From Candidatus Iainarchaeum sp. (GTDB lineage Archaea > Micrarchaeota > Micrarchaeia > Anstonellales > Bilamarchaeaceae): 56,416 nucleotides of DNA. Position 1 is the stretch's first letter. Every line of letters begins with the position of its first letter. The notes under the pieces are model-generated. The model did no database searches and was not told the DNA's origin. It was given only the letters and a program-made list of their open reading frames with translations. Location: assembly GCA_028686985.1 (NCBI GenBank), contig JAQUBA010000004.1, positions 1 to 56,416 on the forward strand, given 5' to 3'. A program made the position numbers and the translations under genes. Positions 1,867 to 43,583 of this stretch are shown here, piece after piece.

Positions 1867-1899
1867 AGTTAGTGATGGGGGGTTGGATTAATAAAAATG

Positions 1900-2163: not shown

Positions 2164-2183
2164 TTATGAATACGGAGAGGGCG

Positions 2184-2190: not shown

Positions 2191-2193
2191 AGA

Positions 2194-23082: not shown

Positions 23083-23652
23083 TCAGATCTGCTTAACCGC
23101 GATTACGCCCGCCCGCGTCTTGTAGAATTTGTAGCCGGCCTTCATCAGGACTTTTTCGGTTTTCGTGCCCCTCTGGGACACCACTTCATCAACGTTGCCG
23201 TCCGGGTTCATGGGGGTGGTGAGCGTGACCGCGAACTGGAACTCTCTCGCGCGCCCTTCCATCTCGCGGTGGTCCACGAGGAGTTCGCGCAGCCCCTTCC
23301 CCTCATATGCGAGCAGGACCGCGTCGTCCTCAAGGAAAATCGCATTCGTGTAGCCGGCCTCAAGCTGGAGGTTGGTGGGGTTATAGGCCGTGCCCCATGC
23401 GAGCCCCACGGCGACGAGCATCCTGCCCACGTATGCGCCGTAGCTCATGTTCCTCCTGAGCACCTCGCGCACCTCCTCTTCCGTGACCGCGAAGAGGCAC
23501 TTCCTCATTATGTGGGTGACCTCCTCCGCGTCCTCGGGCTTGAGGCGCTTTATCTCCGCCTCCTCTATGTCTATGGGTGAGCGCACGCGCATCTTGGGGG
23601 ACGCCTTCTCCTCCGTGTTCTCCTCTATTATGGCGTTCTTGAAGTCGCTCAT
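23083..23652 (-). CDS. Hypothetical cytosolic protein, weakly GNAT-like
   Basis: The track start is TTG, so I use the ATG at 23652 (MSDFKNAIIEE). The segment AVLLAYEGKGLRELLVDHREMEGRAREF resembles the acetyl-CoA loop of GNATs, but only weakly. Confidence 0.35.
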   Translation of the reverse strand: MSDFKNAIIEENTEEKASPKMRVRSPIDIEEAEIKRLKPEDAEEVTHIMRKCLFAVTEEEVREVLRRNMSYGAYVGRMLVAVGLAWGTAYNPTNLQLEAGYTNAIFLEDDAVLLAYEGKGLRELLVDHREMEGRAREFQFAVTLTTPMNPDGNVDEVVSQRGTKTEKVLMKAGYKFYKTRAGVIAVKQI

Positions 23653-23710
23653 CAATTGGATAATGGGAGGAGGAGTTTTAATCTATTGCGATGGATGGGG
23701 GCCGGGCACA

Positions 23711-24046
23711 TTACATGAACCTTGTCCCGCATACCGGGCATCTGGTATAAAGGGTGTCCATCTCATACCCGCAGATGGGGCACCTCCACACCTGCTTCTT
23801 CGCCCGCGCAATCTCCGCCTCAAAATCATAGTCCCCGTTCACGCATTTCTTCGCGTCCAGCTCGTTCAGCTCGCCACACTTGGGGCACTTCTTCCTGAAC
23901 ATGGACTTTATGCGCACCCCGCAGGACGGGCAGCGCTCCATGTCCAGCGTCACCTTCGCCCCGCATGAGGGGCACTTGAAATCCTTGTCCGCGAGCGTGG
24001 ATTTCTTCTTGCCCAGGCCCTCTTTTATCGCGTCTAGAAGTCCCAT
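23711..24046 (-). CDS. Triple zinc-ribbon protein
   Basis: 111 aa. Paired CxxC knuckles: CPSCG..CPSCG, CPKCG..KKC, CPICG..CPVCG. Overlaps the upstream gene's 3' end by 13 nt. Confidence 0.7.
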   Translation of the reverse strand: MGLLDAIKEGLGKKKSTLADKDFKCPSCGAKVTLDMERCPSCGVRIKSMFRKKCPKCGELNELDAKKCVNGDYDFEAEIARAKKQVWRCPICGYEMDTLYTRCPVCGTRFM

Positions 24047-25050
24047 TTATGCACCATCATGGCAAGCGGGAGCAGCGCCGCAAGGACGAACGCGGATGGG
24101 CACATGGGCTTGGAGCCCGTGCCTGAAGTGCCAGCCCCGGGGGTTCCGGTGCCGGCTTCGCCGCCCGTGGTTGTGGGCACATCGCCAGGTTCTACATTCT
24201 CTACCTGCGCCCCACCAAGGCACTGCGCGGACATCGCGCTGTTCAGGGCATCAAGGCTCATCCCATAGTTGCCGCCGCGGACCGCCGTCTTGAGCGCGGC
24301 TATCTGCGTCGCGACGTTCCCGGAGTTGCACGCGCGCGAGTTCGCGAGGTCTTCCGCGCTCTTTATCTCCGACAGCGCAGCCGTGCATGCGGATGCGTTG
24401 CCGTTTATGGACCGTACGGTGTTTATCGCGCCTTCCACCAGCATCCTGGCGCCATCCACCCTGCACTCCTTCAGCAGGGCCTCTGACTCCGCCTCCACCC
24501 CTACGAGGGAATCGCGGTCCGCCTTGAGCTTGCAGCATGTGGAGCCGTCGCTGCTGCACAGGGAGAGCGGCTGCACGTCCGCGTATTCGTCAAGGAACAC
24601 CTCGGTCTTGTTCTCCACTATGAGCTCCTTGGCGGTCGGGAAGTGGTTGAGGGGCACATCAAACACGGCTTCGTAGGTGGTTGAGCCCCGGGTCATGGTT
24701 ACTCTTGCGATTTCAAAGGAATCCACGCCCTCGCCCCTGCCGCCGAGGTAAACCGGGATGCGGACGTTGCAGGTCTTGCCGAACTCAAGGACCGGGCACT
24801 CCGCGGCCTGAACCCACTGGTCGTTCGTGAAATTCCTGAAATAGAAATATGCGGTCGTGCGCTCCCCGAACGGGTTCTCCACCCATATCCCCATGGTGAT
24901 GTGCTCCGGCCCGTTTCCGCCGGAGTCGCAGTTGTGCACGAGCACGTTGGACGAAACGGGCTGGGAGTCTATGGTGCTCAGCTCCACCTCAAGCTCCGCG
25001 GAAAAAACAAACCCTGAAACCAGCAGCAACGCCAATAGAACGGCTTTCAT
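24034..25050 (-). CDS. Secreted Cys-containing surface protein with G/T/S linker and C-terminal TM anchor
   Basis: I use the internal ATG at 25050 (MKAVLLALLLVSGFVFSAELEV, a signal peptide). The C-terminus is GGEAGTGTPGAGTSGTGSKPMCPSAFVLAALLPLAMMVHKWDF. No family recognised. Confidence 0.65.
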   Translation of the reverse strand: MKAVLLALLLVSGFVFSAELEVELSTIDSQPVSSNVLVHNCDSGGNGPEHITMGIWVENPFGERTTAYFYFRNFTNDQWVQAAECPVLEFGKTCNVRIPVYLGGRGEGVDSFEIARVTMTRGSTTYEAVFDVPLNHFPTAKELIVENKTEVFLDEYADVQPLSLCSSDGSTCCKLKADRDSLVGVEAESEALLKECRVDGARMLVEGAINTVRSINGNASACTAALSEIKSAEDLANSRACNSGNVATQIAALKTAVRGGNYGMSLDALNSAMSAQCLGGAQVENVEPGDVPTTTGGEAGTGTPGAGTSGTGSKPMCPSAFVLAALLPLAMMVHKWDF

Positions 25051-25071
25051 GAGTGGGATTTGCAGGAAGTA

Positions 25072-25079
25072 TTTATATA
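25072..25079. promoter_or_regulatory. Palindromic TATA box shared by divergent operons
   Basis: TTTATATA is centred at 25075.5, exactly midway between the minus-strand ATG (25050) and the plus-strand ATG (25101). It lies 22 nt from each start. Confidence 0.6.
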
Positions 25080-25100
25080 CTTTACAGAAGAGTGGAAAAG

Positions 25101-26780
25101 ATGCGGGGTTGGCTGTTTGCGTTGGTTCTGCTAGGGCTAGCCTTTGCTGCGGGGACGGGCGTGGAGATTCCCGACCTGAACCCGCAGGCAAACCCCGCGT
25201 TCATCGGCGCGATAATCCTGCTCTCCGTGAGTTTTGTCGCGGTGGCCTATGCCGTGTCCACCGGCCTGCAGAACCCGTCCGCCATCGCCTGGAGCAAGGA
25301 CCAGCTGAGGGAGGTGGTTGCGGGGGTAATCCTCGTGGTGATGGTGATCGGGGCTTACGCGACGATAAACGCGCTGCTTGTGCCTTTCCTCACACCGGTT
25401 ACTGAAGACGTGGACCGTGAGGTCAGCCATGATGTCGTTACCGAGACCGGGATATGGAATGTAACCTACCATGTTGCGCATGGGTGCTGCGCGGCGGGGT
25501 GCGGCCCCGGGGAATGCATTACCGGGGACGGGAGGGACGATTTTGAAGGGGAGGCCCCGGGCCCATTTACAATAAGTGCCGGGATGTGCGGGGAATTCCC
25601 GGACCCGGCGGCCGCCCCGTGCGTGAACGTCCTGGTTACCGCGAACGAGGAGCAGCCCTGCGAATACGGGGGGAGCCTCTATTCCAGCACGTGCCATATA
25701 TCGGAAAGGGCGCCCGTGGCGCAGCCGGACGGAACCTACCATACCACGGATGTGGAGATAACCGTGGACAAGGACGTGGTGACGCGCACGGAAACGGTGA
25801 CCGAGACGGTCACGGAAACCATCAGCCACCCGCCGATGACCGACAACGCCATGCTGACGCTGGGCGAGGAGGCGCTGCTTTCCGTCATCAACACGACGAA
25901 AAGGATTTACGAGAGGGTGGGGGAGGCGTATTTCAGCGTGGCCCTATACCAGGGGATGTCGGTGAGCACGACGCGGCTGAACCTTTATTACGTTACGTGG
26001 GGGGAGAGCAGCGCCCCCTTCGCTGGGATAAGCCATGTGATGGTTGCCCTCAACCAGGGGGCGCAGCAGCTCACCTTCCAGCTCCTCAGCTTCCGGGTGG
26101 TGCTGATATTCCTTTCATACATCAATTCCGTGGTTCCATCCTTCATCCTTCCGATCGGCATGGCGTTCCGGGTGTTCCCGTTCACCAAGAAAATAGGCAA
26201 CACCCTCATAGCGTTGTCCCTGGGCGCCCTGTTCATGTTCCCGGCATCCCTCGTGCTGGTGAAGGAAATCCATGGTTCCATCAACTCGGAAAAAGTCAAT
26301 GAGGCGCTCGGAAAGTCCTTCCTGCTTGAATACGAGGGGGTGGGCTCGGAGACCTACGGGCCGCTCATGGCTTTCTGCAAAGAGCCGGTTTTGAGGATAA
26401 TCCTGCTGCCGGGGGAAATACCGCTCAGCATAATCTGGGCAAGCATAGTCTGCGCATTCTCCACGCTAGCCTATGCGGCATGCTGGATAGCCCAGTGGAT
26501 GTTCTTCCTGCAGATACTGTGGCCCCTGCTCAATTTCGCGGTGCAGAACATATTCTCCATATTTGTGCTCCCGTTCGCAAACCAGATGGAGCCGCAGATG
26601 ATATATGACGACCTGGTGCAGCCCGTGCAGATGATACTCCTGCCCGCGATAGCAGAGACGGCCATGTTCGCCATAATCGCCTCCCTCATAATCGCGATAG
26701 TGACCATCACCGGAACCAAGGCCATCGCAAGCGCGATAGGCGGGGATTACATCCTCTACGGGATAACGAGGCTGGTATGA
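25101..26780 (+). CDS. Paralog 1 (P1) of an unassigned polytopic membrane protein family, with a Cys-rich loop
   Basis: I use the ATG at 25101 (MRGWLFALVLLGLAFAAG, a signal peptide). It has the family motifs VAVAYAVSTGLQNPSAIAWSKDQLREV, LPIGMAFRVFPFTKKIGNTLIALSLGALFMFP and the C-terminus AIGGDYILYGITRLV. A Cys-rich insert (HGCCAAGCGPGEC...) and a TETVTETVTET repeat lie between TM2 and the core. Confidence 0.75.
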   Translation: MRGWLFALVLLGLAFAAGTGVEIPDLNPQANPAFIGAIILLSVSFVAVAYAVSTGLQNPSAIAWSKDQLREVVAGVILVVMVIGAYATINALLVPFLTPVTEDVDREVSHDVVTETGIWNVTYHVAHGCCAAGCGPGECITGDGRDDFEGEAPGPFTISAGMCGEFPDPAAAPCVNVLVTANEEQPCEYGGSLYSSTCHISERAPVAQPDGTYHTTDVEITVDKDVVTRTETVTETVTETISHPPMTDNAMLTLGEEALLSVINTTKRIYERVGEAYFSVALYQGMSVSTTRLNLYYVTWGESSAPFAGISHVMVALNQGAQQLTFQLLSFRVVLIFLSYINSVVPSFILPIGMAFRVFPFTKKIGNTLIALSLGALFMFPASLVLVKEIHGSINSEKVNEALGKSFLLEYEGVGSETYGPLMAFCKEPVLRIILLPGEIPLSIIWASIVCAFSTLAYAACWIAQWMFFLQILWPLLNFAVQNIFSIFVLPFANQMEPQMIYDDLVQPVQMILLPAIAETAMFAIIASLIIAIVTITGTKAIASAIGGDYILYGITRLV

Positions 26781-27679
26781 TGAAGGCAGTGCCCATGGCC
26801 CTCATTTTCGTTTCCGCCGCCTTCGCGGCATGCTCCCTTGACAGCAGCCAGTTCTCGGAGGCGATGCCGATAATAGGCGCCGCAATCATGCTGAGCGTGG
26901 CGGTCGTAGCGGTGGCATATGCCGCGGGCAGCATGCTCAGGGACGCGCACCTGCTCGTATTCAGCAAGGATGAGCTTTTCCACCTCCTCATATCCGTCCT
27001 GCTCGTGGTCGCGATACAGTCCATATTCACGGGCTCATGCCTTATCACGTCGGATGTGCTGGACGGGAATGACCCGCTCACCTACTCCGTTTCATACATG
27101 CGGGGGCTGCGGATAGAAGGTTCCTCCGTCCTCACCGGGCTGATGAGGAGCTCCATAGACCAGAAATATGCGGCCGCGGAAACGGGCGGATACTTCTTCC
27201 CTTTCGTGGGCGGCGAGATATTCATGGAGGAATCGTTCAAGAACGCATATTCGCGGCACCTTGACATCGCCTTTGATTTTGTGATGATGGGCTTCGTGAG
27301 CTCGGGCCTGCAGTATGAGGGGATGAAGATGGTCGGGTTCGTCTCGCTTGGCGTGCTGCTTCCCTTTGGGCTCATATTGAGGATGCTCCCCAAGCTGAGG
27401 GATTCCGGGAACGTGGTGATCGCCCTCGCTTTTGCCATATACATCTTCATCCCCTTTTCGTATGCTGCCATCGGCTCGGTGGCGCGCGACATGCCGGTCG
27501 GATGCGATTACAAGTACGATGGCGGGGACGACCCCGTGTTCGGGCCATGCGATGGGGTGACCGGCTTCGGAACCATCGCGAACTACATAATGCAGACCAT
27601 ATTCCTGCCGAACCTTGCGCTGGTGGTGTTCGCCACGGCGGCAGGAGCGCTGGTGAAGATTGCGAAGGTGATACCATGA
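26777..27679 (+). CDS. Paralog 2 (P2), minimal member
   Basis: 300 aa. ATGA overlap with P1. Signal or lipobox-like MALIFVSAAFAAC. Motifs VAVAYAAGSMLRDAHLLVFSKDELFHLL and LLPFGLILRMLPKLRDSGNVVIALAFAIYIFIP. Confidence 0.75.
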   Translation: MMKAVPMALIFVSAAFAACSLDSSQFSEAMPIIGAAIMLSVAVVAVAYAAGSMLRDAHLLVFSKDELFHLLISVLLVVAIQSIFTGSCLITSDVLDGNDPLTYSVSYMRGLRIEGSSVLTGLMRSSIDQKYAAAETGGYFFPFVGGEIFMEESFKNAYSRHLDIAFDFVMMGFVSSGLQYEGMKMVGFVSLGVLLPFGLILRMLPKLRDSGNVVIALAFAIYIFIPFSYAAIGSVARDMPVGCDYKYDGGDDPVFGPCDGVTGFGTIANYIMQTIFLPNLALVVFATAAGALVKIAKVIP

Positions 27680-31878: not shown

Positions 31879-32919
31879 ATGGTGGCTGGTGAAGAAGGGG
31901 GGCTTTTTGACGTATCCAGCCTCCTGAACACGCCGTTCCTTTACGGATGGGGGGACGGGGGCTGGTGGTTTGTGAATTGCGTCCTTGCAATACTCATTAC
32001 CGGCCTGATAATGGGCATGTTCTACGCGATAGGCTATGCGATAAACTCTGCGAACCTGAAAAGGTATTCCATGTCCGAGTTCCTCCAGCTTGCGGCAACC
32101 GCGGTGCTGGTGATTGGGCTGGTGGGGATGCTGAGCATGGGGAGCACGGTGCTCGGGACGATGTTCGGGGGGACGATCCAGTGCAAGGGGAGCCCGATAA
32201 GCAACCACATTGATGCGGCAATGTGCAGGACCACGGAGAAGCTGGGGTATTTCAATGCGGCATACGAGCAGATAAAGGAGGACAATGCGGGGCTGGAATG
32301 GCTTTATTACTGGCAGATGACGCTGCTCGGGGTGCCTTTCTTCCAGGGGATGTGGATAGACGACGTTTACAAGCCGGTGGAAACCGGCCATTACATAGCG
32401 ATGAAGATAGTGTCCGTAATGCTGTCGCTGAACGCGCAGTATTTCCTGCTCAAGTACATAAAGGCGAACATGCTCGCCACCTTCCTTCCCCTGGGCATAA
32501 TACTCCGCACGCTGCACTTCACGCGGGGCATAGGCGGATTCTTCATCGCCCTGGCGGTAAGCCTGTATTTTGTGTATCCCGGGGCGCTTTTCCTCATGGA
32601 TGCGACCTACGCCCCGCCCAGCGACGTGCCGACCCCGGATTACACGAGGGAAGGGGTATGCGACCTGCCGATGTTCAGCGGGTTTTCCATAGGCGCAATC
32701 CAGCCGGCTTCGGATGCGGGAAGGGGGGCTATGAACAGTGCGGCCCGCGCGGCCATCAGCACCGGCAATATGGCCAACTTCGTGACTCGTGTATTCGTAG
32801 GGCTTTTCTTTGACAACATGGTGGCTTTTGCGATGGCGCTCACTGTGATGAGGTACGCAACCAGCCTCCTTGGCGGGGAAGCAGGGGTATTCCTGCAGAT
32901 GATGGCAAGGTGGGTATGA
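31879..32919 (+). CDS. Paralog 6 (P6)
   Basis: 346 aa. AGGTGA in the 5-nt gap. Motifs MFYAIGYAINSANLKRYSMSEFLQL and FLPLGIILRTLHFTRGIGGFFIALAVSLYFVYP. C-terminus LLGGEAGVFLQMMARWV. Confidence 0.75.
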   Translation: MVAGEEGGLFDVSSLLNTPFLYGWGDGGWWFVNCVLAILITGLIMGMFYAIGYAINSANLKRYSMSEFLQLAATAVLVIGLVGMLSMGSTVLGTMFGGTIQCKGSPISNHIDAAMCRTTEKLGYFNAAYEQIKEDNAGLEWLYYWQMTLLGVPFFQGMWIDDVYKPVETGHYIAMKIVSVMLSLNAQYFLLKYIKANMLATFLPLGIILRTLHFTRGIGGFFIALAVSLYFVYPGALFLMDATYAPPSDVPTPDYTREGVCDLPMFSGFSIGAIQPASDAGRGAMNSAARAAISTGNMANFVTRVFVGLFFDNMVAFAMALTVMRYATSLLGGEAGVFLQMMARWV

Positions 32920-35900
32920 TGGACAGGGACATATTGGTCGTTTTGGCGCTTCTCTTCGTTTTTGCAGGATGCACGATGCCCGAATACCGCCAGTGCTGCC
33001 TTTACGCGAATGCCGAGGCGGGGCAGTGCGTGCTCAAGAATGCGACCGCCTACGACACCAACTCGTGCGACATGGAGAACCTCACCTGCAACGTGACGCA
33101 GGGCGACAGGGAGATGACATTCCCCATCTGCCCGAGAGTGGAGGAGGTGGAGTGCAATGTTTCGTGCGCTGGGATGTTCTGCGCAAAATACGAATACGAC
33201 CCAAGGCCGCCCGCCTCGCCCGATTTCATGATTGAGGCGATACAGACCGAGGAGATGAGCAGGGAGGCCGGCATCGGGCTCGGGGAGGACACGGCAAAGG
33301 GCCTCTACGGCACGGAATGCAGGATAGAGAACATCACCCCGACGTTCCTTAACCTCATGAGGAACGTGCAGGGCGGCGTGCGCCTGAACATATTCAGGTT
33401 CGGGGTGGGGGGCTCCTTTGAGGAATTTGACGAGGCATACATGTACTACCCGCTCACCGACTACGCATGCGAAAACAACCAGTTCGGGCATGTGGACCGG
33501 TATGTGAACTACATGATACCGAATTTGATGGGCGGCGGGGAACTGTGCAGCGTGGGGGGCGTGCTCACCCCCACCGGGGAGATACCGCAGTATTTCTGCA
33601 ACGTGGATGATTCCATCCGCACCTTCACCTACCAGGACTGCGCGACAAGGTGCGCGCTGAAGGCATACGGGGATGCCCCGGTGGTCCAGCCCAACAACGC
33701 CTACCCCACGGAAAGGAACGGGATGGAGAGCGGGAACCCGTTTGCATACGGGGTTTCGCCAAGCATGCACGGTAGCGACCCTTTCAGGGACCTGCAATAC
33801 AAATCGTCCATAGATGTCCCGCCGGCGTTTGACGACGAGTATCCTGCGGGGTACACATACTACGGAAGCGAATTCGCGAACAACAGGTACCTGAGCAACG
33901 AGAATGGCGGCTGGGAGAGCATCATGCTTGAGCGCGGCCCCCTCTCCGTGGATGTGACCACCGGCTTCATGGATTACTATTATGGGGAGGAAACGGACCA
34001 GATAACTGTGGAGGGCGGCAACCTAGTGGAGGAGATGACCACAGCCGAAAGGGACCCGCACATGCTGTATTCGTACCTGCTCTCCCGCCATTCCGTCTAT
34101 TCAAAGCAGTTCAAGGAAGGGCATTACACCCCGGAGGGGGAATGGAGCCCGGGCGCGGAATTTGAGTGCACGCTTGAAGGCGGGGAGTGCGTCTCGGGGT
34201 TCTGCAATACATTTGATTATACCAGGGGCGCATGCGAGAAGCTTGACTTTGAAACCGGCGAAACGGAGGAGGTGCCCTGCGACTGCTGGGAGGAATACGG
34301 GGACATAGTGTGCGCCGGGCAGAAATATTATGGAACGGATGCGTGGGACAACGGGGAGGACATAACCGCGGCCAAGCCGCTGGGGACGCTCGTGGAGTGG
34401 GATGAGAGCTTCCTTGGGTTTAGTATCGGGTGGTACAGGAGCTTCCCTTCCACTGGGAAGATGTTCAGCTACGACCCTGGCGGGGTATTCCTGGACGAGC
34501 CGGAGGGGGAAGAGGTGCAGGACCTAGTGATATTGCTTGGGGGCAGGGAGGACCCGGACTACCAGCTATTTGAATATTCGGACGAGCTGGATGACATGAA
34601 TGAGACGCTCACCATCCCGCAGGTGCTCTCCAGGGCGAAGTGGAGCGGGTGCGGCGCGTATTCCGATTGCGGAAAGTTCTACACGACCTTTGTGGACGCG
34701 TGCATGCCGGATTTACCGGACCCGGCATACTCCGAATCCAATTTCATGGTCTGCTACAGCAGGAAAACGAACGGGCACTACGGGCAGGGGATAGACCGGG
34801 CAACCGGGGAGGTCTACGACCTGCCCAGCCCGTCCATCTGCGAGGCGCTTTATGATGCAGACCAGGATGGACACAGCAAAAATGATTACGGGGGCGTGGA
34901 CAAGAACAGCGACACCGACCATGACGTGTATTGCTATGCGAGGGAGTCCGACGGGACGTGCGTCGGGTATGCGAGGGCGGCGCTGGTCCTCACGGCCCGC
35001 GAAATAACCTATACAAACGCGGACGGGGAGGAGGTGATAGGCAAGGCATTCGGGAACTGCATACTGGAGGAGGACAAGCTCAAGGTGGTGACGCCCGGCT
35101 ATTGCGAGCATTGCAGCTTCCTCACCATGGCGAAGGAGAATGTGGTAGAACTACCGGAAGATGATGAAGACCCGGGATACCAGAGGGCAGGCAGCGGGAA
35201 GCTCAACACGAACAAGTACTGCCCCTCCCTTGAGATAAGCACCATATACAATAATGAGCCGTCCGCCATCGTGCTTGCGCCCGGCACCGCGAAAGCAGAT
35301 TGGGAATCCGGGGGGACGCATAGCTCGGGAGGGGATGAGGGGAACCCCTACAGGTACAGCGAATGCACGATGCCTGACGGGACCGAAGCCGGAAAAAAGG
35401 CGGCATGGCCGGATTACCTCCCGAACGCATATTACCTGAAGAAAAAAATAGACGGATACCTGCAGAGGAACGTGATGCCGGTCATATTCGCGGATGACGA
35501 TGGGCTCTACCGGGGACTATACCCCGGAACGGACGACCCCGCCCTTTTTGTGGAAACGGACGGGGATTCCGCCTCAAGCCCCCTGCTGAAGAAGCTGTAT
35601 GACGAGAACCCGCTCGGCTTCGCGGAAAACGCGGACGAGGGCGGGGACGAGTACACGACACAGGGGACCTTCCTTGCGGATTCCGTGATGAACCTCGGCG
35701 CCGGGATAATCGTGGTGAGGAACTTCAATTCAGACGACATGGAAGCCGCCGGGGGCTCGCCCATCATAATCACAGAAACCGGGGAAGCCAGGTCGCTCAG
35801 GAAGATAGATTACACGCTTTACGCCCGCGAGAGGGCGGTCCGGCTCATGTGCCCGAACTGCATGGTCGCGGTCGGGATAGGCTATGGTGAAGAGGGCTCC

Positions 35901-37118
35901 GGCATACCCTCAAGGGTGGTCCAGCTCGCCGAATTGTTTGATTACCGGGATTCCGGCGGCAGGCTCCTCTCGGAATACGATGACTACGGGGCGAACGCCT
36001 CGTGCTTTGAAGGGGGGGCGGGCTGCAGCCAGGACACGCTGCAGAGGGTGGACATACTCGCCGTGAAGTGGGAACTGGGGAGGCACAATTCATATTGCGA
36101 CGAAATAGAGAATGAGAGCGACAGGTTTGAGGCCATCCTCGCGGATGAGGTGGATTTCGGGGCAAAGACGCTCAAGAGGTTTGGGAAGCCGGTCGTGGTT
36201 ACGGATTTCTCCATAACGCGCAACCAGGTGGGGAGCTGCTGGGATGATGAAAGCGCAAAGAGGTTCATGATTTACCTTGCCGAGCATACGCAGGAGCTGG
36301 TGAAGAGCGGGCACATAGGGCTGATATACGGGAACTGGACCTACGGCCACTCCGGGGAAGCGGGCACGAGGTACATAAGGACGAAGGAGGGCAACGTTGG
36401 GGAATACAGGGGGCCGTTCTTTGAAGGCACTTTCCAGGCGGCGCGCATTTTCGCAGGCAAGAATGAGCAGACCATAGTGAACCAGATAGGCGTTTCGGAA
36501 GAATGCGCGTGCGTCGCCTGCACCTCCAGCGACGATGCATCGCTGTGCAACGGAAAGTTCGGGGGGGTGGGGGAATACTGCAGCGGGTATTTGCCGGGCA
36601 TTTCCATGAAATGGCCGGAATCGTGCGTCTCCCCGGATGTTTGTGTGAGCAACGAAGACCTCCCGATGTACAGGATTGAGTGCAACGTTTATCACAACGA
36701 CGGGAGCAGCGAAAGGGTTGTTTATGACGGCGCGGACATCGCCCCGAACCCGCGGCTCTATGCGGCGGAAATCGCATCCATAAAGAAATCCGGGAATGTG
36801 CCGTGCATCCCGATGGGCGTGCAGAACGGAAGCTTCGCCACAATGGAGGTCGGTGGCTCGCAGCCATATCCCATCCTGTTCAGGAAGGACGGAAACCTGA
36901 GCATATCCTGCGGGGGGGTGGCGGAGGAGGGTTTCTTCAGCGCATGCGGCCTGGAGTCGCCGTTCGTAAACCGCAGGATGGACTGCGTGATGGCGAAGAA
37001 GGATGTGTCCATAACGCTTCCGCCGCTGGGGGTCCCGCTTGTCACGGGCGGGGCGGCCATTCCGCTGGCGCCTGGGGTTGAAGTGCCGGACATGCCCGCC
37101 GGCCCGTTCGGTGGATAG
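32916..37118 (+). CDS. Giant (~1400 aa) Cys-rich extracytoplasmic protein with a lipobox-like signal
   Basis: I use the ATG at 32916 (ATGA overlap with P6). N-terminus MMDRDILVVLALLFVFAGC (L-x-x-C lipobox-like). About 50 Cys by my hand count. Many N-x-S/T sequons (NAT, NLT, NVT, NVS, NIT, NET...). No further TM helix seen. No family recognised. Confidence 0.7.
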   Translation: MMDRDILVVLALLFVFAGCTMPEYRQCCLYANAEAGQCVLKNATAYDTNSCDMENLTCNVTQGDREMTFPICPRVEEVECNVSCAGMFCAKYEYDPRPPASPDFMIEAIQTEEMSREAGIGLGEDTAKGLYGTECRIENITPTFLNLMRNVQGGVRLNIFRFGVGGSFEEFDEAYMYYPLTDYACENNQFGHVDRYVNYMIPNLMGGGELCSVGGVLTPTGEIPQYFCNVDDSIRTFTYQDCATRCALKAYGDAPVVQPNNAYPTERNGMESGNPFAYGVSPSMHGSDPFRDLQYKSSIDVPPAFDDEYPAGYTYYGSEFANNRYLSNENGGWESIMLERGPLSVDVTTGFMDYYYGEETDQITVEGGNLVEEMTTAERDPHMLYSYLLSRHSVYSKQFKEGHYTPEGEWSPGAEFECTLEGGECVSGFCNTFDYTRGACEKLDFETGETEEVPCDCWEEYGDIVCAGQKYYGTDAWDNGEDITAAKPLGTLVEWDESFLGFSIGWYRSFPSTGKMFSYDPGGVFLDEPEGEEVQDLVILLGGREDPDYQLFEYSDELDDMNETLTIPQVLSRAKWSGCGAYSDCGKFYTTFVDACMPDLPDPAYSESNFMVCYSRKTNGHYGQGIDRATGEVYDLPSPSICEALYDADQDGHSKNDYGGVDKNSDTDHDVYCYARESDGTCVGYARAALVLTAREITYTNADGEEVIGKAFGNCILEEDKLKVVTPGYCEHCSFLTMAKENVVELPEDDEDPGYQRAGSGKLNTNKYCPSLEISTIYNNEPSAIVLAPGTAKADWESGGTHSSGGDEGNPYRYSECTMPDGTEAGKKAAWPDYLPNAYYLKKKIDGYLQRNVMPVIFADDDGLYRGLYPGTDDPALFVETDGDSASSPLLKKLYDENPLGFAENADEGGDEYTTQGTFLADSVMNLGAGIIVVRNFNSDDMEAAGGSPIIITETGEARSLRKIDYTLYARERAVRLMCPNCMVAVGIGYGEEGSGIPSRVVQLAELFDYRDSGGRLLSEYDDYGANASCFEGGAGCSQDTLQRVDILAVKWELGRHNSYCDEIENESDRFEAILADEVDFGAKTLKRFGKPVVVTDFSITRNQVGSCWDDESAKRFMIYLAEHTQELVKSGHIGLIYGNWTYGHSGEAGTRYIRTKEGNVGEYRGPFFEGTFQAARIFAGKNEQTIVNQIGVSEECACVACTSSDDASLCNGKFGGVGEYCSGYLPGISMKWPESCVSPDVCVSNEDLPMYRIECNVYHNDGSSERVVYDGADIAPNPRLYAAEIASIKKSGNVPCIPMGVQNGSFATMEVGGSQPYPILFRKDGNLSISCGGVAEEGFFSACGLESPFVNRRMDCVMAKKDVSITLPPLGVPLVTGGAAIPLAPGVEVPDMPAGPFGG

Positions 37119-37126: not shown

Positions 37127-40100
37127 ATGCTTGAGCACCCAAAAAAATTCATGAGGCCGGCTGCCCTGCTGCTACTGGTGATGCTCCTTTCCCTCGGCTC
37201 CGCATCCGATGGCATAGGGGGCGGGCCAGATGTAGGCGGCGGGATAAGCCCTGAGGCCACGGCAGGGGCGGGCATAGAAATTCCGGTTTATCCCGACATA
37301 TCAAGGCCCATACCCGTCCCTGAAGCGTGCGCCGAATGCCCGCCTCCCGGGCTTGAGCCCCCCCTAATGCTCCCATTCCTGGATGACGTGGGGAAGGATG
37401 CCTCCATCTATGTTGCGGCGACCAAGGAAGGGCGGAGGGTTCCGCTGGAGGGCGCGACCGTATTTATCCATGTATATAAGAGCGCTGGGGATTTCGTATA
37501 TTCGTGCAGGGCATATACCGATTCTTCGGGGGGGGCTGTGCTCTCTTACGCCCCATATGAGGAGGCCTGCAAGAATGGATGCACCATCAAGTTTGTTTTC
37601 TGCTGCTCCGGAGTGGTGGAGCAGTCCTGCATGCTGCCGGTATGCCTCGGGAGCAGCATAACCTCCTACAGCGATTACGTCTCCTGCCCGGGCTATCCGG
37701 ACCCGTGGCCCGTGAATGCGACTGTTGATGGGGTGGCTTACCCGGCCGCGCCCGCCGTTGCAGAGACGCAGATACCCCCCTCCGCGGAGGCGGCCGCCTT
37801 TGCATTGGATTTCGTGTTCTGCTTCCCGATTCTTGTGCTCTTCGGGCTGCTTGGGGCGGCTATGTACGCGTCGGGCAGGGACCCGTTTGCAATTTTCTCG
37901 TTCTACACGCCGAGATATACGCGGGGGGCGGAAAGGCCGATGGGGGCGAGGGGGTTCACATTTGACACGAGGACGATAATGGGTGCGGCGCAGAGCATAG
38001 CCATGGCGGGGATTGCCGGGGCGAGAAAGGCGGAAAAGCAGAGCTCGCAGCAATCCAGCAGCCAGCAGCAGGGTGGAGGCGGGCAGGTGCAAACCACTCA
38101 GGGCGCGACCGGCGCGCTGGGGGAGCCGAGGCAGGCCCAGCAGCCCACGCAGGCACCTTCCGCCGCCTCGGTTGCGCCCCAGGGGGCGCGGGCGCCTGGC
38201 GGTGGCCTGAGCGCAGTAGACCTGAGGGCCGCGGCTCCGCAGACCGGAGGGCTGCCCATCCAGCTGCTTGCGAATGCAATCTTCAAGATGTTCACGGGGG
38301 ACATGAGCGGCTGGAGCAGGTTTGCGCAACTGTTCACTAGTTCTTCCATATACGGGCAGTTTGAAGGGATTGGGGCGCAGGAATTCGCGGCGCAGATGGC
38401 CAGCACCCTCCTCATCTACAGCAACCTCCCGTTCGGGTGGCTCGTGAACAGCTTCACATACTCTCCGCACTTGCAGACGCTTGCAGGCGCAAGGAACCTT
38501 GCGAACATAGGGAAGCTGAGCGACATGCTGTATGGATGGACCGATGAGGAAGGGCATTTCCACAGGGGATGGCAGGAAGATGTGAGCGGCAATATACACA
38601 TAAGCTGGAGGCAGGACGGGGAGGTGCAGGAAAGGGTGTTTGCAAGGGGCTCAAACGAGCTCGTCACCTTCATCCAGAACAACGTAACCGACTCTTACTA
38701 TTCTGCTCAGCAGTTCGTGCAGGTCGCCATGGCGGACTCCCAGCAGGGGCTGGCCGCATCCTCCACCGAAGCGATTGAGGGCAACCTCCGCGGGGCCGAG
38801 GGGAGGATGGGGATAGTTGACCTCACCCACAGGCTGCAGGGATTCACTCCGGAGCAGGTTCAGGCATGGACCACGGAAAGGGGGTTCCAGGGGGCATTCA
38901 GTGGGGCAGTCGGGGTGTTGATGAGCGGCAGGAATGCGGATGGGACGGAGACGACCATGCAACAGAAGATTGAGGCGTTCCGGACCGCCGCAGCCGCGTT
39001 TTCCGTGTTCTCGGGCACCGAAGGGTTCGCGGACAGGTATTCATCGCTCAGCGCAACCCAGGAATTCAGGTTCCTGGAGCGGATGATGACCGTGACCGGG
39101 ACGGCCGAATCCCCCGGGCTGCTCAGGGAGATTATGGCGGCGGAGGGAGGGATGAACGGGGGGGTGCTGACATCAGCCTCGCTCATCGCGCTCTGCATGG
39201 GTTCAACCGACAACGCAACCGCCCAGGCTGCGGGCTCATCGGCAATGGGCGGCCTGCGCGGGATAATCACTTCCGGAGAAGGGCGCCCGAACGTTGCATT
39301 CTCTGAAGGCGCGGAGGGGGTGCATGAGAGGAATTTGTTATCAATGGTGCTTGGGAGCTCAATAGCTTCCCTTGAACCGGCTTCGGAATCATACCAGCAA
39401 CAGTCCTACATGCTCGCCGCGCTTTCAAGCGAATACCGGCTTGAAGCCCAGGCTGTGGCGGAAGGGCTCGCCCCGGATGCGGGCAACAGGGGCTGGGCCG
39501 AGGGGAGCCTTGACATCAGTGCCGGGACCCGGGACTGGGCCGAGCAGTTCCAGGGGAACGCAGCCACGTCCATCGCATTGCAGGAGATGGAACCCATGAT
39601 GGACGCCATGACCAGGTACGCATTCTTCAACGACCCGGTCGCAAGGGAGGTCCTGGCAGCCGCCGACCCGGTGCCCTATGAGGAACTGCAAAGGCGCCAG
39701 AGGGAGGGGGAGCTGTCCTCATCGGACCAGTATCTATTATACGCATACCAGTGCGGAAGGCAGGACCAGGAAAGAGGACGGGAAGTGGGCGCCGCCGCAT
39801 ACGGGCTCAGCGGCGAGGCCGGGGCGGCGGAAGGAATGCTCACGCAGCAGCAGAGGCTGGATGCGGCGCGGACGATTGTGGAGAGCACGCCTATAGAAGC
39901 CGATGTGTCGGGATGGATTGCGGCGGGCAACCAGGAGGCGCGTGCCGCCGCGGTACGCAGCGAGGAGGGGCTGGGAACCGTGCAGAGGTATGCTTTTGGC
40001 CTGTATTTTTCTGATAATGAAGCGGATAAGCAGAGGGGCATGGAGCTTTTGGGGGCAGTCGGTGCGGTCTATCAGGGAACGGGGCCGGAGCGGGACGCGG

Positions 40101-40711
40101 CCGTGGCAACGATATACAACAGCACGCCTGCAGAAATATGGGTTGGCCTATCGGGCGCTGCCGCGACGCAGCTTCTTGTTGATGGGAATGCCGGTGCAAT
40201 CACTGCGGCGCGGACCTACGGAGAACATTATGCCGCGGCCGGCGAGGCCGGAGCGAATCTGGAGGCGGCGCCTGTGGGGCCGCGCCAAGCCATATACGAC
40301 CCCGCAATCAGGGAACCGAGAATCTCGGCATTTGACGCGATGGCCGGCGCCGGCTCCATAGACGTAAATCATTATATGGGCTCGCCCGTGATGCAACAGC
40401 AGACCGCCGCGGTGATGGATGCGGTTGCGGCGAGCACCGCGCGTTTCGCCGCGAGTTCGTTATACCAGGATTATTTCAGCAGCCACACCGAAACCGTGGA
40501 CCAGTGGATGGAGCAGGCGAGGGAGCACCAGAGGCGGCTGGACGAGGCGGGCGCGGTCACCACCGAAACCGGGGCGGTTGTGCTGCCGGAGGAGGGGGGC
40601 GGCGGGCCTCCCGGAGGTGGCTGGGGCGCCAGCGAATACAGCCAAGCGGCACGGAGGGCATACGAGGCAAGGGGCAGGGGGCAGGTCCCCGGTGAGGAAA
40701 TACCCAGGTAA
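37127..40711 (+). CDS. Giant (~1190 aa) bitopic protein: Cys-rich ectodomain, TM, Q/S/G-rich linker, large Ala/Gly/Gln-rich domain
   Basis: Signal peptide MRPAALLLLVMLLSLGSASDG. The N-terminal ~210 aa are Cys-rich. TM FVFCFPILVLFGLLGAAMYA is followed by an Arg-rich flank. Low-complexity KQSSQQSSSQQQGGGGQVQTTQG...QAQQPTQAPS. The remaining ~850 aa contain only two Cys. No Walker motifs seen. Confidence 0.7.
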   Translation: MLEHPKKFMRPAALLLLVMLLSLGSASDGIGGGPDVGGGISPEATAGAGIEIPVYPDISRPIPVPEACAECPPPGLEPPLMLPFLDDVGKDASIYVAATKEGRRVPLEGATVFIHVYKSAGDFVYSCRAYTDSSGGAVLSYAPYEEACKNGCTIKFVFCCSGVVEQSCMLPVCLGSSITSYSDYVSCPGYPDPWPVNATVDGVAYPAAPAVAETQIPPSAEAAAFALDFVFCFPILVLFGLLGAAMYASGRDPFAIFSFYTPRYTRGAERPMGARGFTFDTRTIMGAAQSIAMAGIAGARKAEKQSSQQSSSQQQGGGGQVQTTQGATGALGEPRQAQQPTQAPSAASVAPQGARAPGGGLSAVDLRAAAPQTGGLPIQLLANAIFKMFTGDMSGWSRFAQLFTSSSIYGQFEGIGAQEFAAQMASTLLIYSNLPFGWLVNSFTYSPHLQTLAGARNLANIGKLSDMLYGWTDEEGHFHRGWQEDVSGNIHISWRQDGEVQERVFARGSNELVTFIQNNVTDSYYSAQQFVQVAMADSQQGLAASSTEAIEGNLRGAEGRMGIVDLTHRLQGFTPEQVQAWTTERGFQGAFSGAVGVLMSGRNADGTETTMQQKIEAFRTAAAAFSVFSGTEGFADRYSSLSATQEFRFLERMMTVTGTAESPGLLREIMAAEGGMNGGVLTSASLIALCMGSTDNATAQAAGSSAMGGLRGIITSGEGRPNVAFSEGAEGVHERNLLSMVLGSSIASLEPASESYQQQSYMLAALSSEYRLEAQAVAEGLAPDAGNRGWAEGSLDISAGTRDWAEQFQGNAATSIALQEMEPMMDAMTRYAFFNDPVAREVLAAADPVPYEELQRRQREGELSSSDQYLLYAYQCGRQDQERGREVGAAAYGLSGEAGAAEGMLTQQQRLDAARTIVESTPIEADVSGWIAAGNQEARAAAVRSEEGLGTVQRYAFGLYFSDNEADKQRGMELLGAVGAVYQGTGPERDAAVATIYNSTPAEIWVGLSGAAATQLLVDGNAGAITAARTYGEHYAAAGEAGANLEAAPVGPRQAIYDPAIREPRISAFDAMAGAGSIDVNHYMGSPVMQQQTAAVMDAVAASTARFAASSLYQDYFSSHTETVDQWMEQAREHQRRLDEAGAVTTETGAVVLPEEGGGGPPGGGWGASEYSQAARRAYEARGRGQVPGEEIPR

Positions 40712-40716: not shown

Positions 40717-41025
40717 ATGCCAGAAACCCGCCCGGTAAAAAGATTGAGGAGGCACCTCACAATAGAAAACCTCTGGCTCTACATATTATCCCTAATCAGG
40801 AAGGAAGAGTGCTATGCGTATACCCTCCCGGAGCAGATAGAGAGGGGCTTCCATTTCAGGCCCAGCAGGGTCATGGTGTATATCGTGCTCCATATGCTGG
40901 ATGGCGAGGGGCTCATAAAAAGCGAGCAGAAGGAGAGAAGAAAATATTACAGGCTTACGGAAAAGGGGAAGGAGACGCTCAAGGAAGCGAAATGGGAGCT
41001 GAAAGCCCTCTCGGAAAAATTATGA
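40717..41025 (+). CDS. PadR-family winged-helix transcriptional regulator
   Basis: 102 aa. LWLYILSLIRKEECYAYTLPEQIE....VMVYIVLHMLDGEGLIKSEQKERRKYYRLTEKGKETL matches the PadR N-domain pattern. A 5-nt gap separates it from the preceding giant gene. Confidence 0.75.
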   Translation: MPETRPVKRLRRHLTIENLWLYILSLIRKEECYAYTLPEQIERGFHFRPSRVMVYIVLHMLDGEGLIKSEQKERRKYYRLTEKGKETLKEAKWELKALSEKL

Positions 41026-42092: not shown

Positions 42093-43583
42093 CTACCTCT
42101 TCATGTTCCTTATCGTGTTCCAGAGGTTCTTGAGCGCCAGATGGACATTTACCATCCCGTGATAGGCGTTGTCGGCAACCAGGATTAATTTCCTCAGCGG
42201 GGACCTCCTCGCCTTCACCGGCTTCATTATCCCGTTCTGCAGCTCAAGATAGCTGTCAATGGATATCTTGGCGCCGTAATCAGCGCCATCGCGGGCAAAG
42301 TGCGTCTGTTTGCGCATCAGGTACACAAGGTCGCTTGCCCTGAAGGCGACTCCCCTGTGGAACAGCCCCATGGCTTCCTTGGAGAAGTGTATGACTGTGC
42401 GCCCCCAGGCGAGCGGGCTGACCACCCGCATATAGGTCCTCACGCCTTCGTAAACATGCAGGTCCGGGTCGGCATACTGCCTCTTCCTGAAGCCATTTTC
42501 CTTCTTGCAGTGCATGGAGAATGCGATGCTTATGTTCTTCTGGTCCAGCGTCGCCTGCGTTCCCAGGTGCTTCCTCACAATCATCTCAAAGAAAGCCTGC
42601 GTTTCCGGGTCCTGGGGGGATGCCAGCTTGTCCGGGAATGTAAAGTTGCCGCTGCCAACCAGGTCAATATGGCGCTGGATGAAATCCAGGACCTCGGATA
42701 TTGACCGTTCGCGCTTTTCCGGGTCGTTGAGAGCCCCTACGCCGACCTGCCCTATCCCCACGTTTATTATCCCGTATGTATGCGCCGCGCGCGCGGCGAT
42801 GCTGTTTGCCTCGCGCAGCTCATCCATGGTCATCAGCACTTCGCCCTGGTCAATGCGTGGTGCCATGCCCGGCATGTCAAGAGTCCTGCCCTTCAGTATC
42901 CTGTCCCAGAAATCAAGTGCAGTGGGCAGGTCTTTGAAATCAATGTTCAGGTGCATTCCGTTGAGCGCTAGCAGGTTCTTCGCGGGAAGGGTGAGCTCAA
43001 GCGAAGGCACCTTCATTATGCCAGCAGCATCCTCCATATCTGCGATATCCTCGAAATGTTGCGCATTAATCCAGTTATGGTAGCCCGTGGCGTCAATGTC
43101 GTAATGCCAGAGCATCATCTCGCGGAGTATGTGCGTGCGGGAGGAGACGCCGTCGTCCTTGCCGCCGTTCTCGCCCCAGTGGCCGTGGGCGCAGGCATAT
43201 CTCGTGTTCGTGTCTTTTGCCGCGGCGGTTTTGAGGACTGCATCTTTCACTTCGCTAACCCACTCATCCTTCACTTTGGAAGAAGAAAACCTGCGCATGA
43301 GCTGGCGCTTGGTAAGTGCCTTGCCGCCGTCTTCCCGTGAAGGGTCGGTGAAAAATACCTTTGTGCGGCCAAATGATGAGGTCTTCACGAATACGAAGAA
43401 GTTGGAGTCGCCGGGGACATCCGGGTTCAGCCCGCGGTTGAGAATTATCTCCCCTTTCTTGCAGATGCGGGGGTCGTCTATGACTCCGTAGCCGGAGCGC
43501 ACCAGCTCATTTACGAGCTTCTGCCTCCTTGTTATGCCCCTCTGCCGGAGGAAGCTGAATTCCACTGTTCCCACCTCCAGCAT
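42093..43583 (-). CDS. Conserved-looking cytosolic protein of unknown function (496 aa)
   Basis: Clean ORF with ATG at 43583 and TATA-like TTTATATA 21-31 nt upstream. Globular composition without TM helices. His/acidic-rich segments (ACAHGHWGENGG, MLWHYDIDATGYHNW). I recognise no family. Confidence 0.5.
   Translation of the reverse strand: MLEVGTVEFSFLRQRGITRRQKLVNELVRSGYGVIDDPRICKKGEIILNRGLNPDVPGDSNFFVFVKTSSFGRTKVFFTDPSREDGGKALTKRQLMRRFSSSKVKDEWVSEVKDAVLKTAAAKDTNTRYACAHGHWGENGGKDDGVSSRTHILREMMLWHYDIDATGYHNWINAQHFEDIADMEDAAGIMKVPSLELTLPAKNLLALNGMHLNIDFKDLPTALDFWDRILKGRTLDMPGMAPRIDQGEVLMTMDELREANSIAARAAHTYGIINVGIGQVGVGALNDPEKRERSISEVLDFIQRHIDLVGSGNFTFPDKLASPQDPETQAFFEMIVRKHLGTQATLDQKNISIAFSMHCKKENGFRKRQYADPDLHVYEGVRTYMRVVSPLAWGRTVIHFSKEAMGLFHRGVAFRASDLVYLMRKQTHFARDGADYGAKISIDSYLELQNGIMKPVKARRSPLRKLILVADNAYHGMVNVHLALKNLWNTIRNMKR

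Follow-up and report, generated by a model that had tools for sequence, protein, structure and literature searches.

A cysteine-rich giant protein encoded behind six membrane paralogs, a predicted lipid-anchored envelope subunit of Micrarchaeota and candidate component of their cell-contact machinery

Micrarchaeota and other DPANN archaea are ultrasmall symbionts, and how they recognize a host, attach to it and exchange material with it is an open question. DPANN contact structures are visible by cryo-tomography, and we know of no genes that have been assigned to them. The question is raised by a locus of Candidatus Iainarchaeum sp. (Archaea; Micrarchaeota; Micrarchaeia; Anstonellales; Bilamarchaeaceae), in which six genes for paralogous membrane proteins (P1-P6) are followed by a gene for a giant Cys-rich protein of 1400 amino acids (aa), here called G1. 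The window analyzed is contig JAQUBA010000004.1 of assembly GCA_028686985.1, positions 1 to 56,416 of the forward strand, i.e., 56,416 nucleotides (nt). What could such a protein do, and does it work with the six proteins encoded ahead of it? The answer favored here, to which a rough probability of 45% is given, is that G1 is a lipid-anchored extracytoplasmic subunit of a multi-subunit, Micrarchaeota-specific envelope complex, placed at a possible host-contact interface.

G1 is the seventh gene of a string with the order P1-P2-P3-P4-P5-P6-G1-G2-PadR (coordinates in Table 1). Its open reading frame (ORF) was confirmed at 32916..37118 of the plus strand, where translation from the ATG at 32916 gives a product with the N-terminus MMDRDILVVLALLFVFAGC; in the ORF list the same frame is entered in a GTG-started version (32910..37118). 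Since this ATG (32916-32918) shares bases with the TGA stop of P6 (32917-32919), the ATGA overlap of the two genes described in an earlier note on this DNA is correct. The predicted mature protein has 1382 aa, a mass of 151.6 kDa and an isoelectric point of 4.3. Its precursor has a sole hydrophobic segment, at residues 1-24, as expected for a protein lacking any transmembrane (TM) helix beyond the signal. No internal repeats were found in G1, nor any domain that it would have in common with P3 or with the products of the neighboring genes G2 and m385; a C-terminal end of the G-P-x-G-G type recurs in most of its close orthologs.

The N-terminus has the anatomy of a lipoprotein precursor, that is, a signal peptide with a hydrophobic h-region, no further TM segment and a lipobox. 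The latter is usually defined by L/V/I at position -3, A/S/T/V/I at -2, G/A/S at -1 and C at +1, and the sequence F-A-G-C19 of G1 matches it when position -3 is relaxed to Phe; across the family this position is occupied by L, F, I, V, M or A. The n-region of G1 is atypical (MMDRD, net charge -1) and its orthologs carry K/R at that place. The pair G18-C19 is invariant in 12/12 orthologs, G-C is found in 101/101 aligned members of the family, and an h-region followed by G, A or S and then Cys is present in 123 of 135 full-length members. Moreover, 119 of these 123 have a vicinal CC at a median distance of 9 residues after the lipobox, corresponding to residues 27-28 of G1. The lipoprotein-type signal (FAGC) that had been read from this gene alone is thus supported by its relatives, and lipidation of G1 on Cys19 is predicted. 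Lipobox proteins and the lipidation enzyme AliA have been reported for DPANN archaea, in which lipoproteins are predicted to be prevalent (PMC12462473).

From a compositional perspective, G1 is set apart by its 53 Cys (3.79% of residues, vs. a mean of 0.83% in 14 Pfam-identified housekeeping proteins of the window; binomial P = 4e-19), of which 52 are invariant in the 12 orthologs at 39-50% identity. The earlier count of about 50 Cys was therefore close, and the clusters quoted with it (RQCC, VPCDC, GYCEHC, MCPNC, EECACVAC) are all present in the translation. The many N-glycosylation sequons (at least ten) noticed at the same time fared less uniformly: 11 N-x-S/T sequons are present, and their number is not beyond chance because 7.1 are predicted from composition (Poisson P = 0.11), so that an enrichment was rejected, whereas their positions are conserved more than expected by chance, 8 of the 11 being shared by 7 or more of the 12 orthologs, and N81 and N1027 by 12/12 and 11/12 of them, respectively. 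Disulfide bonds and glycosylation of the conserved sequons are likely on these grounds, and the general picture of an extracytoplasmic, disulfide-rich, probably glycosylated giant devoid of TM helices is upheld.

G1 belongs to a large family. The 12 close relatives retrieved by a word-indexed protein search are 39-50% identical to it, measure 1369-1444 aa and have no Pfam domain; the word-indexed search with a diverse alignment yielded 14 proteins. An exhaustive profile search among 1.84 billion representatives returned at least 188 clusters (at 50% identity) with E <= 1e-3, 154 of them with E <= 1e-10. Family members are mostly 1100-2000 aa long and contain 40-107 Cys per protein. All eight G1-type loci in the one-genome-per-species contigs of GTDB come from metagenome-assembled genomes of Candidatus Micrarchaeota/Micrarchaeia, and every family member with a named source is a Candidatus Micrarchaeota (DPANN), most members being metagenome proteins without a source name. 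No match to G1 was found in Pfam (E <= 0.1), NCBIfam, PHROGs or PADLOC, and none in Pfam for 30 diverse relatives; PDB sequence searches with a 12-ortholog profile and with a 32-member diverse profile gave chance-level matches only. Homology to a known adhesin or surface-layer (S-layer) family, which if it covered the whole protein would have spoken against the original reading, was likewise not found (Pfam, NCBIfam and PDB sequence searches, 30 diverse relatives), and literature searches returned no description of the family or of the operon. Taken together, these searches suggest a previously undescribed family, apparently unrelated to any described one and belonging to a module that is so far restricted to Micrarchaeota, as far as the named members show. 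A 1696-aa relative of G1 (P0195) has a precomputed match to PF23416, the sole Pfam domain recorded among the family members seen.

Four stretches of G1 can be aligned across the family, namely residues ~26-216, ~416-491, ~713-876 and ~1076-1376, the last comprising the end of the barrel discussed below and the C-terminal Cys-rich region. The first is the most conserved and shows the motif N-x-F-R-x-G-x-G-x-S-F ... F/Y-P-x-x-D ... D-R-Y-x-N-Y, in which R161, G163, P179 and Y199 are invariant in 132/132 sequences, D182 is kept in 129 and R195 in 130; confident AlphaFold2 prediction is limited here to about residues 28-70, which form a small beta domain. In the second block E417, C418, C425, S427, C430 and R437 are retained in at least 130 of 133 sequences.

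Concerning the partners of G1, the eight junctions of the string consist of four ATGA overlaps and four gaps of 5-8 nt, and a GGTG-type motif of the ribosome-binding type lies ahead of each start. Such junctions throughout P1...PadR support the proposal, also made earlier, that production of G1 is coupled to that of the upstream membrane paralogs. P1-P6 are six mutual paralogs, with roughly five TM segments each and a shared layout: a signal peptide, a TM hairpin, a large acidic loop, a TM pair around a basic loop, a second acidic loop, a last TM segment and a short tail, ahead of which P1 alone has further hydrophobic segments. The basic loop carries the motif L-P-x-G-x-x-L-R ... T-R-x-x-G-G and the tail the motif G-G-E/D-V/I-D. 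The large loops are acidic and, in P1 (8 Cys) and P3 (22 Cys), rich in cysteine, and the short loops are basic; an outside location of the large loops therefore fits. Furthermore, because the N-terminus of P2 is lipobox-like, this polytopic protein may also be lipid-modified. The product of G2 combines an ectodomain, which is its sole conserved part (41-52% identity), with a fast-diverging, presumably cytoplasmic tail rich in Ala, Gly, Ser, Gln and Glu.

Six near relatives have the order P1...P6-G1 with orthologs that correspond one to one by position, and so does a relative whose pelota is 65% identical, at the same chromosomal position. In a distant contig, judged by gene sizes alone, six upstream genes of 311-725 aa precede giants of 1571 and 1381 aa, and a metagenome scan for distant loci, made with a subgroup alignment, recovered the order in 8/8 loci with enough upstream sequence, all from a subgroup 25-33% identical to the window proteins. 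The placement of G2 differs between loci: in the distant "LGCC" subgroup its ortholog lies upstream of P1 on the opposite strand (loci L015, L019, L023, L026, L027 and L030; ~300-2400, minus strand), and in L034 it lies downstream, as in the window. For this reason P1-P6-G1 is regarded as the contiguous conserved core and G2 as a mobile but linked partner. An ortholog of m190, a protein encoded on the other side of P1 in the window, is found directly downstream of the G1 ortholog in distant lineages (L019 14275-14763, L023 13828-14316, L030 14277-14765). That m190 and G2 stay linked despite rearrangement argues for a functional connection with the module.

Six membrane paralogs in a fixed order, conserved throughout the family, recall heterohexamers such as mycobacterial Mce1A-F (by analogy only), and raise the possibility of a conduit for uptake or exchange, in which P1-P6 would form a pseudo-hexameric channel and G1 a binding or capping subunit, importing host lipids, nucleotides or other molecules which DPANN archaea, with their reduced genomes, are unable to produce. 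In this lineage a membrane-anchored double-AAA ATPase adjoins the locus, and archaeal lipoproteins are often substrate-binding components (PMC12462473). Against this stands the lack of any detectable ABC, MCE, substrate-binding protein or other transporter domain, the only trace being a sub-threshold match of P4 to ABC_export (E = 0.008; 15 bits vs. a cut-off of 29.7); moreover, no linkage of the ATPase to the operon is seen in the distant subgroup, and the folds so far recognized in G1 are not those of binding proteins. Such a conduit is thus an improbable explanation. More generally, G2, P1-P6 and m385 gave nothing significant against Pfam, NCBIfam, PHROGs and PADLOC, PDB sequence searches with the P-paralog profile and with G2 gave chance-level matches only, and no MCE domain, YrbE permease or MceG ATPase was detected by Pfam in any operon protein. 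A type IV secretion or conjugation-like module of the VirB2/TrbC or VirB6/TrbL type was also considered for P1-P6 and is not supported, there being no significant match and no VirB4 or VirD4 gene in the cluster; residues 27-75 of P4 have a sub-threshold match to an NCBIfam pilin-like conjugal transfer protein (E = 0.036; 13.7 bits vs. a cut-off of 40).

The module also diverges in a peculiar way. Compared with the closest relative (L001), nucleotide identity is 83-87% in the flanks, whereas the operon block of 15.4 kb, from ~25.33 kb to ~40.71 kb, can be aligned only patchily, at 63-72%. At the protein level, the flanking pelota, GMP synthase, tetratricopeptide repeat (TPR) protein, AAA ATPase and m190 are 90-94% identical to their L001 counterparts, vs. 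47% for G1, 40-60% for P1-P6, 49% for the G2 ectodomain and 27% for the G2 tail (one further segment of 425 aa). With the much more distant L009 as reference, identity drops to 65% for the flanks and only to 32-37% for G1. The island, whose GC content is unremarkable, thus behaves either as a very fast-evolving region or as a set of old and divergent alleles that are exchanged between conserved flanks. Because the P1-G2 block is far more diverged than its flanks while its Cys and core motifs do not change, the complex is suggested to sit at an interface where selection is diversifying, this being the pattern expected of surface structures exposed to such selection. As a separate observation, just outside the operon a 496-aa protein without family match, which looks cytoplasmic (42093-43583, minus strand), is 50% identical to its counterpart in L001 and 91% to that in L002, its neighbors (pelota, TPR protein, GMP synthase) being 93-94% identical to L001; judged by these comparisons, it is encoded by a second mosaic or hypervariable gene.

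An island that differs so strongly from its conserved flanks, with a PadR regulator and a zinc-ribbon protein nearby, could also be read as a mobile, viral or anti-viral defense element. This reading is very hard to sustain: no integrase, transposase or repeat boundaries were noticed, no operon protein matches PHROGs or PADLOC, the island occupies the same chromosomal position in genomes with pelota only 65% identical, and its GC content does not stand out. In addition, no relatives of G1 were found in 2.9 million viral contigs, on which account a viral or mobile origin is rejected. Of the four alternatives weighed in this work, it is the only one to be largely excluded.

A second alternative to which these data speak is a housekeeping envelope scaffold, G1 being an S-layer anchor or stalk, or a biogenesis factor, that spans the 20-25 nm pseudo-periplasm and has no direct role toward a host. 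The module, which appears to be single-copy, has a core-genome location and occurs throughout the phylum in the genomes sampled, and a lipid anchor carrying a large rigid ectodomain would suit this purpose; S-layer-associated proteins are fast-evolving as well. The mode of anchoring of the S-layer protein of Micrarchaeota is described as an open question, with a separate stalk protein as one suggestion (bioRxiv 10.1101/2021.04.28.441871). On the other hand, an anchor has no obvious need of six polytopic paralogs and of a partner with a 944-aa cytoplasmic region, an allele-like divergence within conserved flanks is unusual for a pure scaffold, and G1 is extremely rich in Cys when compared with S-layer proteins, which are described as nearly free of sulfur amino acids. 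We regard a scaffold as rather doubtful. The narrower idea that G1 is itself an S-layer protein was rejected, in view of its high Cys content and because neither PF05123 nor another S-layer domain was found in it (Pfam, E <= 0.1).

The part of G1 for which a fold can be proposed lies toward its C-terminus. Two AlphaFold2 models were obtained from different alignments, the first covering residues 742-1400 with 12 sequences and the second residues ~20-1186. In the first (mean predicted local distance difference test score, pLDDT, 57.7) values of 70-90 are reached over residues ~851-1140, with a regular beta/alpha alternation, and the second (overall mean 44.5) reproduces the secondary structure of the barrel at pLDDT 70-88. 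When the first model was compared with the PDB by Foldseek, the top 50 matches were TIM-barrel glycoside hydrolases (GH), almost all of clan GH-A, the best being the GH5 mannanase 6tn6 (E = 4.6e-5), followed by members of GH86, GH51, GH1, GH26, GH53, GH128 and GH79; in a viral structure library its top matches were phage glycoside hydrolases. For the second model, GH53, GH26 and GH5 barrels were retrieved, with a few other TIM barrels lower down (best match 6gpa_B; E = 1.3e-3, probability 1.00, target-normalized TM-score 0.41). The earlier note had mentioned, as a visual impression, a TIM-barrel-like strand/helix alternation between 35450 and 36370; the modeled barrel (nt ~35418-36455) encloses that range, the same beta/alpha pattern appears in both models, and the strand motifs quoted for it (VMPVIFADD, GIIVVRNF, VDILAVKW, KPVVVTDFS, IGLIYGNW) are all in the translation. 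The assignment of residues ~835-1180 to a (beta/alpha)8 fold is held to be reasonably secure, with moderate confidence.

Enzymes of clan GH-A use a pair of Glu, an acid/base, usually within Asn-Glu, at the end of strand 4 and a nucleophile at the end of strand 7. In G1, for which the equivalents of strands 4 and 7 are tentative, no Asn-Glu ends a strand 4 and no Glu ends a strand 7. There is indeed no N-E at any strand end of the barrel: the residues after the strand MVAVGIGY vary (G/D, E/D/A/P), and the Glu of KWELG (E1053) is E in only 7 of the 12 close orthologs and 15 of 63 family members. The strand VVVT-D1097-F carries Asp instead of Glu, so that the likeness to an xxVTEFG-type strand bearing the nucleophile, proposed together with the barrel, is not supported; all 12 orthologs keep this Asp, but among 111 family sequences the position holds D in 34, G in 22, N in 18, K in 16 and R in 11, and no acid pair is conserved. 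The positions conserved across the family in the barrel are D1046, K1091-P1092, G1132, G1135, Y1138 and the CxxC at 979-982, and these are considered structural. In a separate comparison, the CPNC of G1 (residues 979-982, nt 35850-35861) lies at the start of a barrel strand, and a CxxC is present in 45 of the 47 family matches that cover it; a likeness to the CPYC of glutaredoxin was not significant (E = 0.83) and the local secondary structure is not thioredoxin-like.

These data bear on a further alternative, according to which G1 would be an active membrane-tethered glycoside hydrolase or transglycosylase whose catalytic barrel cuts or remodels surface glycans of the host or of the cell itself, with S-layer glycans or extracellular polymeric substances as targets, either to clear a path for contact or to obtain sugars. 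The structural neighbors of the barrel, almost exclusively clan GH-A enzymes and phage glycoside hydrolases, would agree with it, as would D1046, E1078, D1097, H1133, Y1138 and W1141, which are invariant in the 12 close orthologs and located at or near strand ends, and the acidic residues after strand 1, which are common in the whole family. Beyond the close orthologs several of these residues change, D1097 being replaced by G/N/K/R in about 70% of the family, H1133 usually by I/V/L and E1078 usually by I/R/M, and E1053 varies even among the close ones. Moreover, no GH profile of CAZy type was matched by G1 (Pfam, NCBIfam) or by the 30 diverse relatives (Pfam), no GH was hit among PDB sequences at E <= 10, and the barrel makes up only a quarter of the protein. 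With the Glu pair absent and the candidate catalytic residues varying across the family, the barrel is probably non-catalytic, most likely serving as a scaffold or a glycan-binding module, and we think an enzymatic role of G1 quite unlikely.

With G1 viewed as a subunit of an envelope complex, a possible course of events can be outlined. The pre-protein would be exported by the Sec pathway, lipidated on Cys19 and freed of its signal peptide, as the lipobox predicts. The other 52 Cys could then form up to 26 disulfides and several of the conserved Asn sequons would be glycosylated, giving a rigid, acidic ectodomain of 152 kDa between the membrane and the S-layer. G1 and P1-P6 would be made from one polycistronic message in a fixed order, and P1-P6 would most probably form a hetero-oligomeric membrane base under G1, as gene order, translational coupling and one-to-one orthology suggest. 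G2, a single-pass protein with a cytoplasmic region of 944 aa, would link the complex to the cytoplasm, and the barrel would act as a glycan-binding module or scaffold, not as an enzyme. The complex would finally stand at an interface under diversifying selection, most probably with the host cell surface or incoming host structures, or alternatively with viruses.

Several points weigh against this reading. Residues 70-830 of G1, about 60% of the protein, were modeled at pLDDT 20-45 only, and an enzymatic or other known fold may hide in a part that is not confidently modeled. The barrel match is weak (TM-scores 0.2-0.41, 8-14% identity, most E-values 1e-3 to 1e-2), and because D1046, E1078, D1097 and H1133 are invariant in the 12 close orthologs, some probability remains for a subfamily-specific activity. 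Eight GTDB genomes and the few database entries with a named source are the basis for the restriction to one phylum. That P1-P6 assemble with G1 and G2 is deduced from gene order only, and every step of the mechanism outlined above is a prediction from sequences and models. Finally, three causes would account for the divergence to a similar degree: host contact, pressure from viruses, and simply a relaxed constraint on a surface protein.

A bolder version can be formulated, which we hold to be unlikely. P1-P6, G1 and G2 might together constitute a pseudo-six-fold portal across the envelope, as the part of the symbiont-host junction contributed by Micrarchaeota, in which a hypervariable, glycan-reading G1 ectodomain would set the host range. 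By cryo-tomography of Micrarchaeon ARM-1, a large barrel-shaped complex has been seen under the S-layer where host nanotubes dock (PMC11329633), and it is a candidate match for such a portal.

Table 1. Features of the G1 locus, in window coordinates.
Feature	Position (nt)	Strand	Description
m190	23083..23655	-	190-aa soluble protein; 90% conserved among near relatives
Double zinc-ribbon protein	23711..24046	-	111 aa; same position in relatives
m385	24034..25053	-	Secreted, signal peptide MKAVLLALLLVSGF..., C-terminal hydrophobic anchor; 49-75% identical in near relatives
TATTTATATA	25071..25080	.	Candidate bidirectional archaeal TATA box; read from sequence, function inferred
P1	25101..26780	+	Signal peptide, TM hairpin, 222-aa acidic loop with 8 Cys, TM pair around basic loop
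P2	26777..27679	+	Paralog 2; N-terminus MMKAVPMALIFVSAAFAAC lipobox-like (F-A-A-C; 26777-26833)
P3	27676..29745	+	Start revised to ATG 27676, ATGA overlap with P2 stop; second outside loop 363 aa, 22 Cys
P4	29742..30794	+	Paralog 4
P5	30803..31873	+	Paralog 5
P6	31879..32919	+	Paralog 6; stop overlaps G1 start
G1 pre-protein	32916..37118	+	1400 aa; founding member here of an undescribed Micrarchaeota family of Cys-rich giant (predicted) lipoproteins
G1, Sec-type signal peptide (residues 1-18) and lipobox F-A-G-C	32916..32972	+	Putative lipidated Cys = 19
G1, N-terminal conserved domain (residues 20-216)	32973..33563	+	15 Cys, conserved sequons; most conserved block of family
G1, second family-wide block (residues ~416-491)	34161..34388	+	F-E-C-x6-C-x-S-G-x-C-x4-Y-x-R
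G1, third block (residues ~713-834)	35052..35417	+	Leads into barrel; G-x-C ... G-Y-C-E-x-C-x-x-L-T-x-A-K ... N-K-Y-C-P; low AlphaFold2 confidence
G1, (beta/alpha)8 TIM-barrel-like domain (residues ~835-1180)	35418..36455	+	Two AlphaFold2 models and Foldseek; GH-A-like fold
G1, C-terminal Cys-rich region (residues 1197-1358)	36504..36989	+	13 Cys; conserved across family
G1, Pro/Gly-rich C-terminal tail	37011..37115	+	Ends ...GPFGG; without TM segment
G2	37127..40711	+	1194 aa; signal peptide, ~190-aa Cys-containing ectodomain, TM 219-250, 944-aa tail
PadR-family transcription regulator	40717..41025	+	Last gene of string; PadR also at that position in distant relatives

The divergent starts of m385 and P1 are 47 nt apart (25054-25100), and the element TATTTATATA between them lies ~21-30 nt upstream of the P1 start (25101, plus strand) and ~18-27 nt upstream of the m385 start (25053, minus strand), a spacing that would suit leaderless transcripts in both directions. 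For m190, no significant match was obtained in Pfam, NCBIfam, PHROGs, PADLOC or PDB sequences. Genes of the window include those for GatD/GatE, Cdc48, pelota and FtsZ, which mark it as archaeal. The ATPase adjoining the locus, an 896-aa protein (20384-23074, plus strand), has a polytopic hydrophobic N-terminal part of ~330 aa ahead of two Cdc48-like AAA domains and is for this reason described as a membrane-anchored double-AAA ATPase; its orthologs at the same operon in two relatives, of ~1400 aa, include an intein that has a LAGLIDADG domain. At the far left of the window, Rfam assigns the RNA of the signal recognition particle (SRP; 1908-2160, minus strand) to its bacterial large SRP model (65.8 bits, gathering score 60) and not to an archaeal one.

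The interest of the locus lies in offering a concrete and good candidate for the cell-contact machinery of Micrarchaeota: a core of seven genes, to which two or three accessory genes are linked, kept throughout the phylum as sampled, apparently unrelated to described families and far more diverged than its flanks between close relatives. To our knowledge, G1 would be the largest and most Cys-rich predicted archaeal lipoprotein by a wide margin, and the analysis adds a probable non-catalytic offshoot of the GH-A barrel fold. If the portal existed, no host-interaction machine of a DPANN phylum would have been defined in molecular terms before it, and it would represent a new class of envelope complex in prokaryotes; if the module were instead a housekeeping scaffold, it would still be a phylum-defining component of the cell envelope wholly missed by current annotation.

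Among the known systems, clan GH-A hydrolases (GH5 mannanases and cellulases, GH26, GH53 galactanases; 6tn6, 6gpa, 1gvy) resemble the predicted barrel of G1 in the eight-fold beta/alpha alternation and account for nearly all of the top 50 Foldseek matches of the two models. They differ from it in that identity is 8-14%, TM-scores are 0.2-0.41, no profile match exists and the Glu pair is absent or not conserved in G1, whose barrel, unlike theirs, has a conserved CxxC and several probable disulfide cysteines and is embedded in a 1400-aa protein. The operons of mycobacterial Mce proteins (yrbEAB-mceABCDEF), with six paralogous envelope proteins, one of them a lipoprotein, and accessory membrane proteins, are the precedent for a heterohexamer. 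The likeness is in gene architecture only, six ordered paralogs and a lipoprotein, and P1-P6 are polytopic (~5 TM), have no MCE domain, YrbE permease or MceG-type ATPase, and belong to another domain of life.

With the archaeal lipobox lipoproteins (Haloferax volcanii as a model, with AliA/AliB; PMC12462473) G1 shares the lipobox, with its invariant Cys, at the end of the signal peptide. The known ones are mostly substrate-binding proteins of 30-70 kDa, whereas G1, whose lipidation is predicted, has 152 kDa, 52 further Cys and no binding-protein domain. The S-layer protein of Micrarchaeota, SLP_Mh (Micr_00292), has a PF05123 domain, about 101 kDa and almost no sulfur-containing residues (bioRxiv 10.1101/2021.04.28.441871). 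Both it and G1 are acidic, probably N-glycosylated envelope proteins with an N-terminal signal sequence, but G1 has no S-layer domain and 3.8% Cys. A parallel in general character is given by the giant, fast-evolving surface proteins of other DPANN archaea. Among these, the SPEARE proteins of Nanohaloarchaeum antarcticus have ~3000-5000 aa with protease, adhesion and nuclease domains. The diversifying surface proteins of Nanoarchaeota (PMC6142677) are a further example. Like G1, such proteins are very large, extracytoplasmic, encoded in reduced symbiont genomes, highly divergent between close relatives and proposed to serve host contact; they have no sequence relationship to G1, which differs from them in being Cys-rich, lipid-anchored as predicted, and always encoded after six genes for membrane paralogs.

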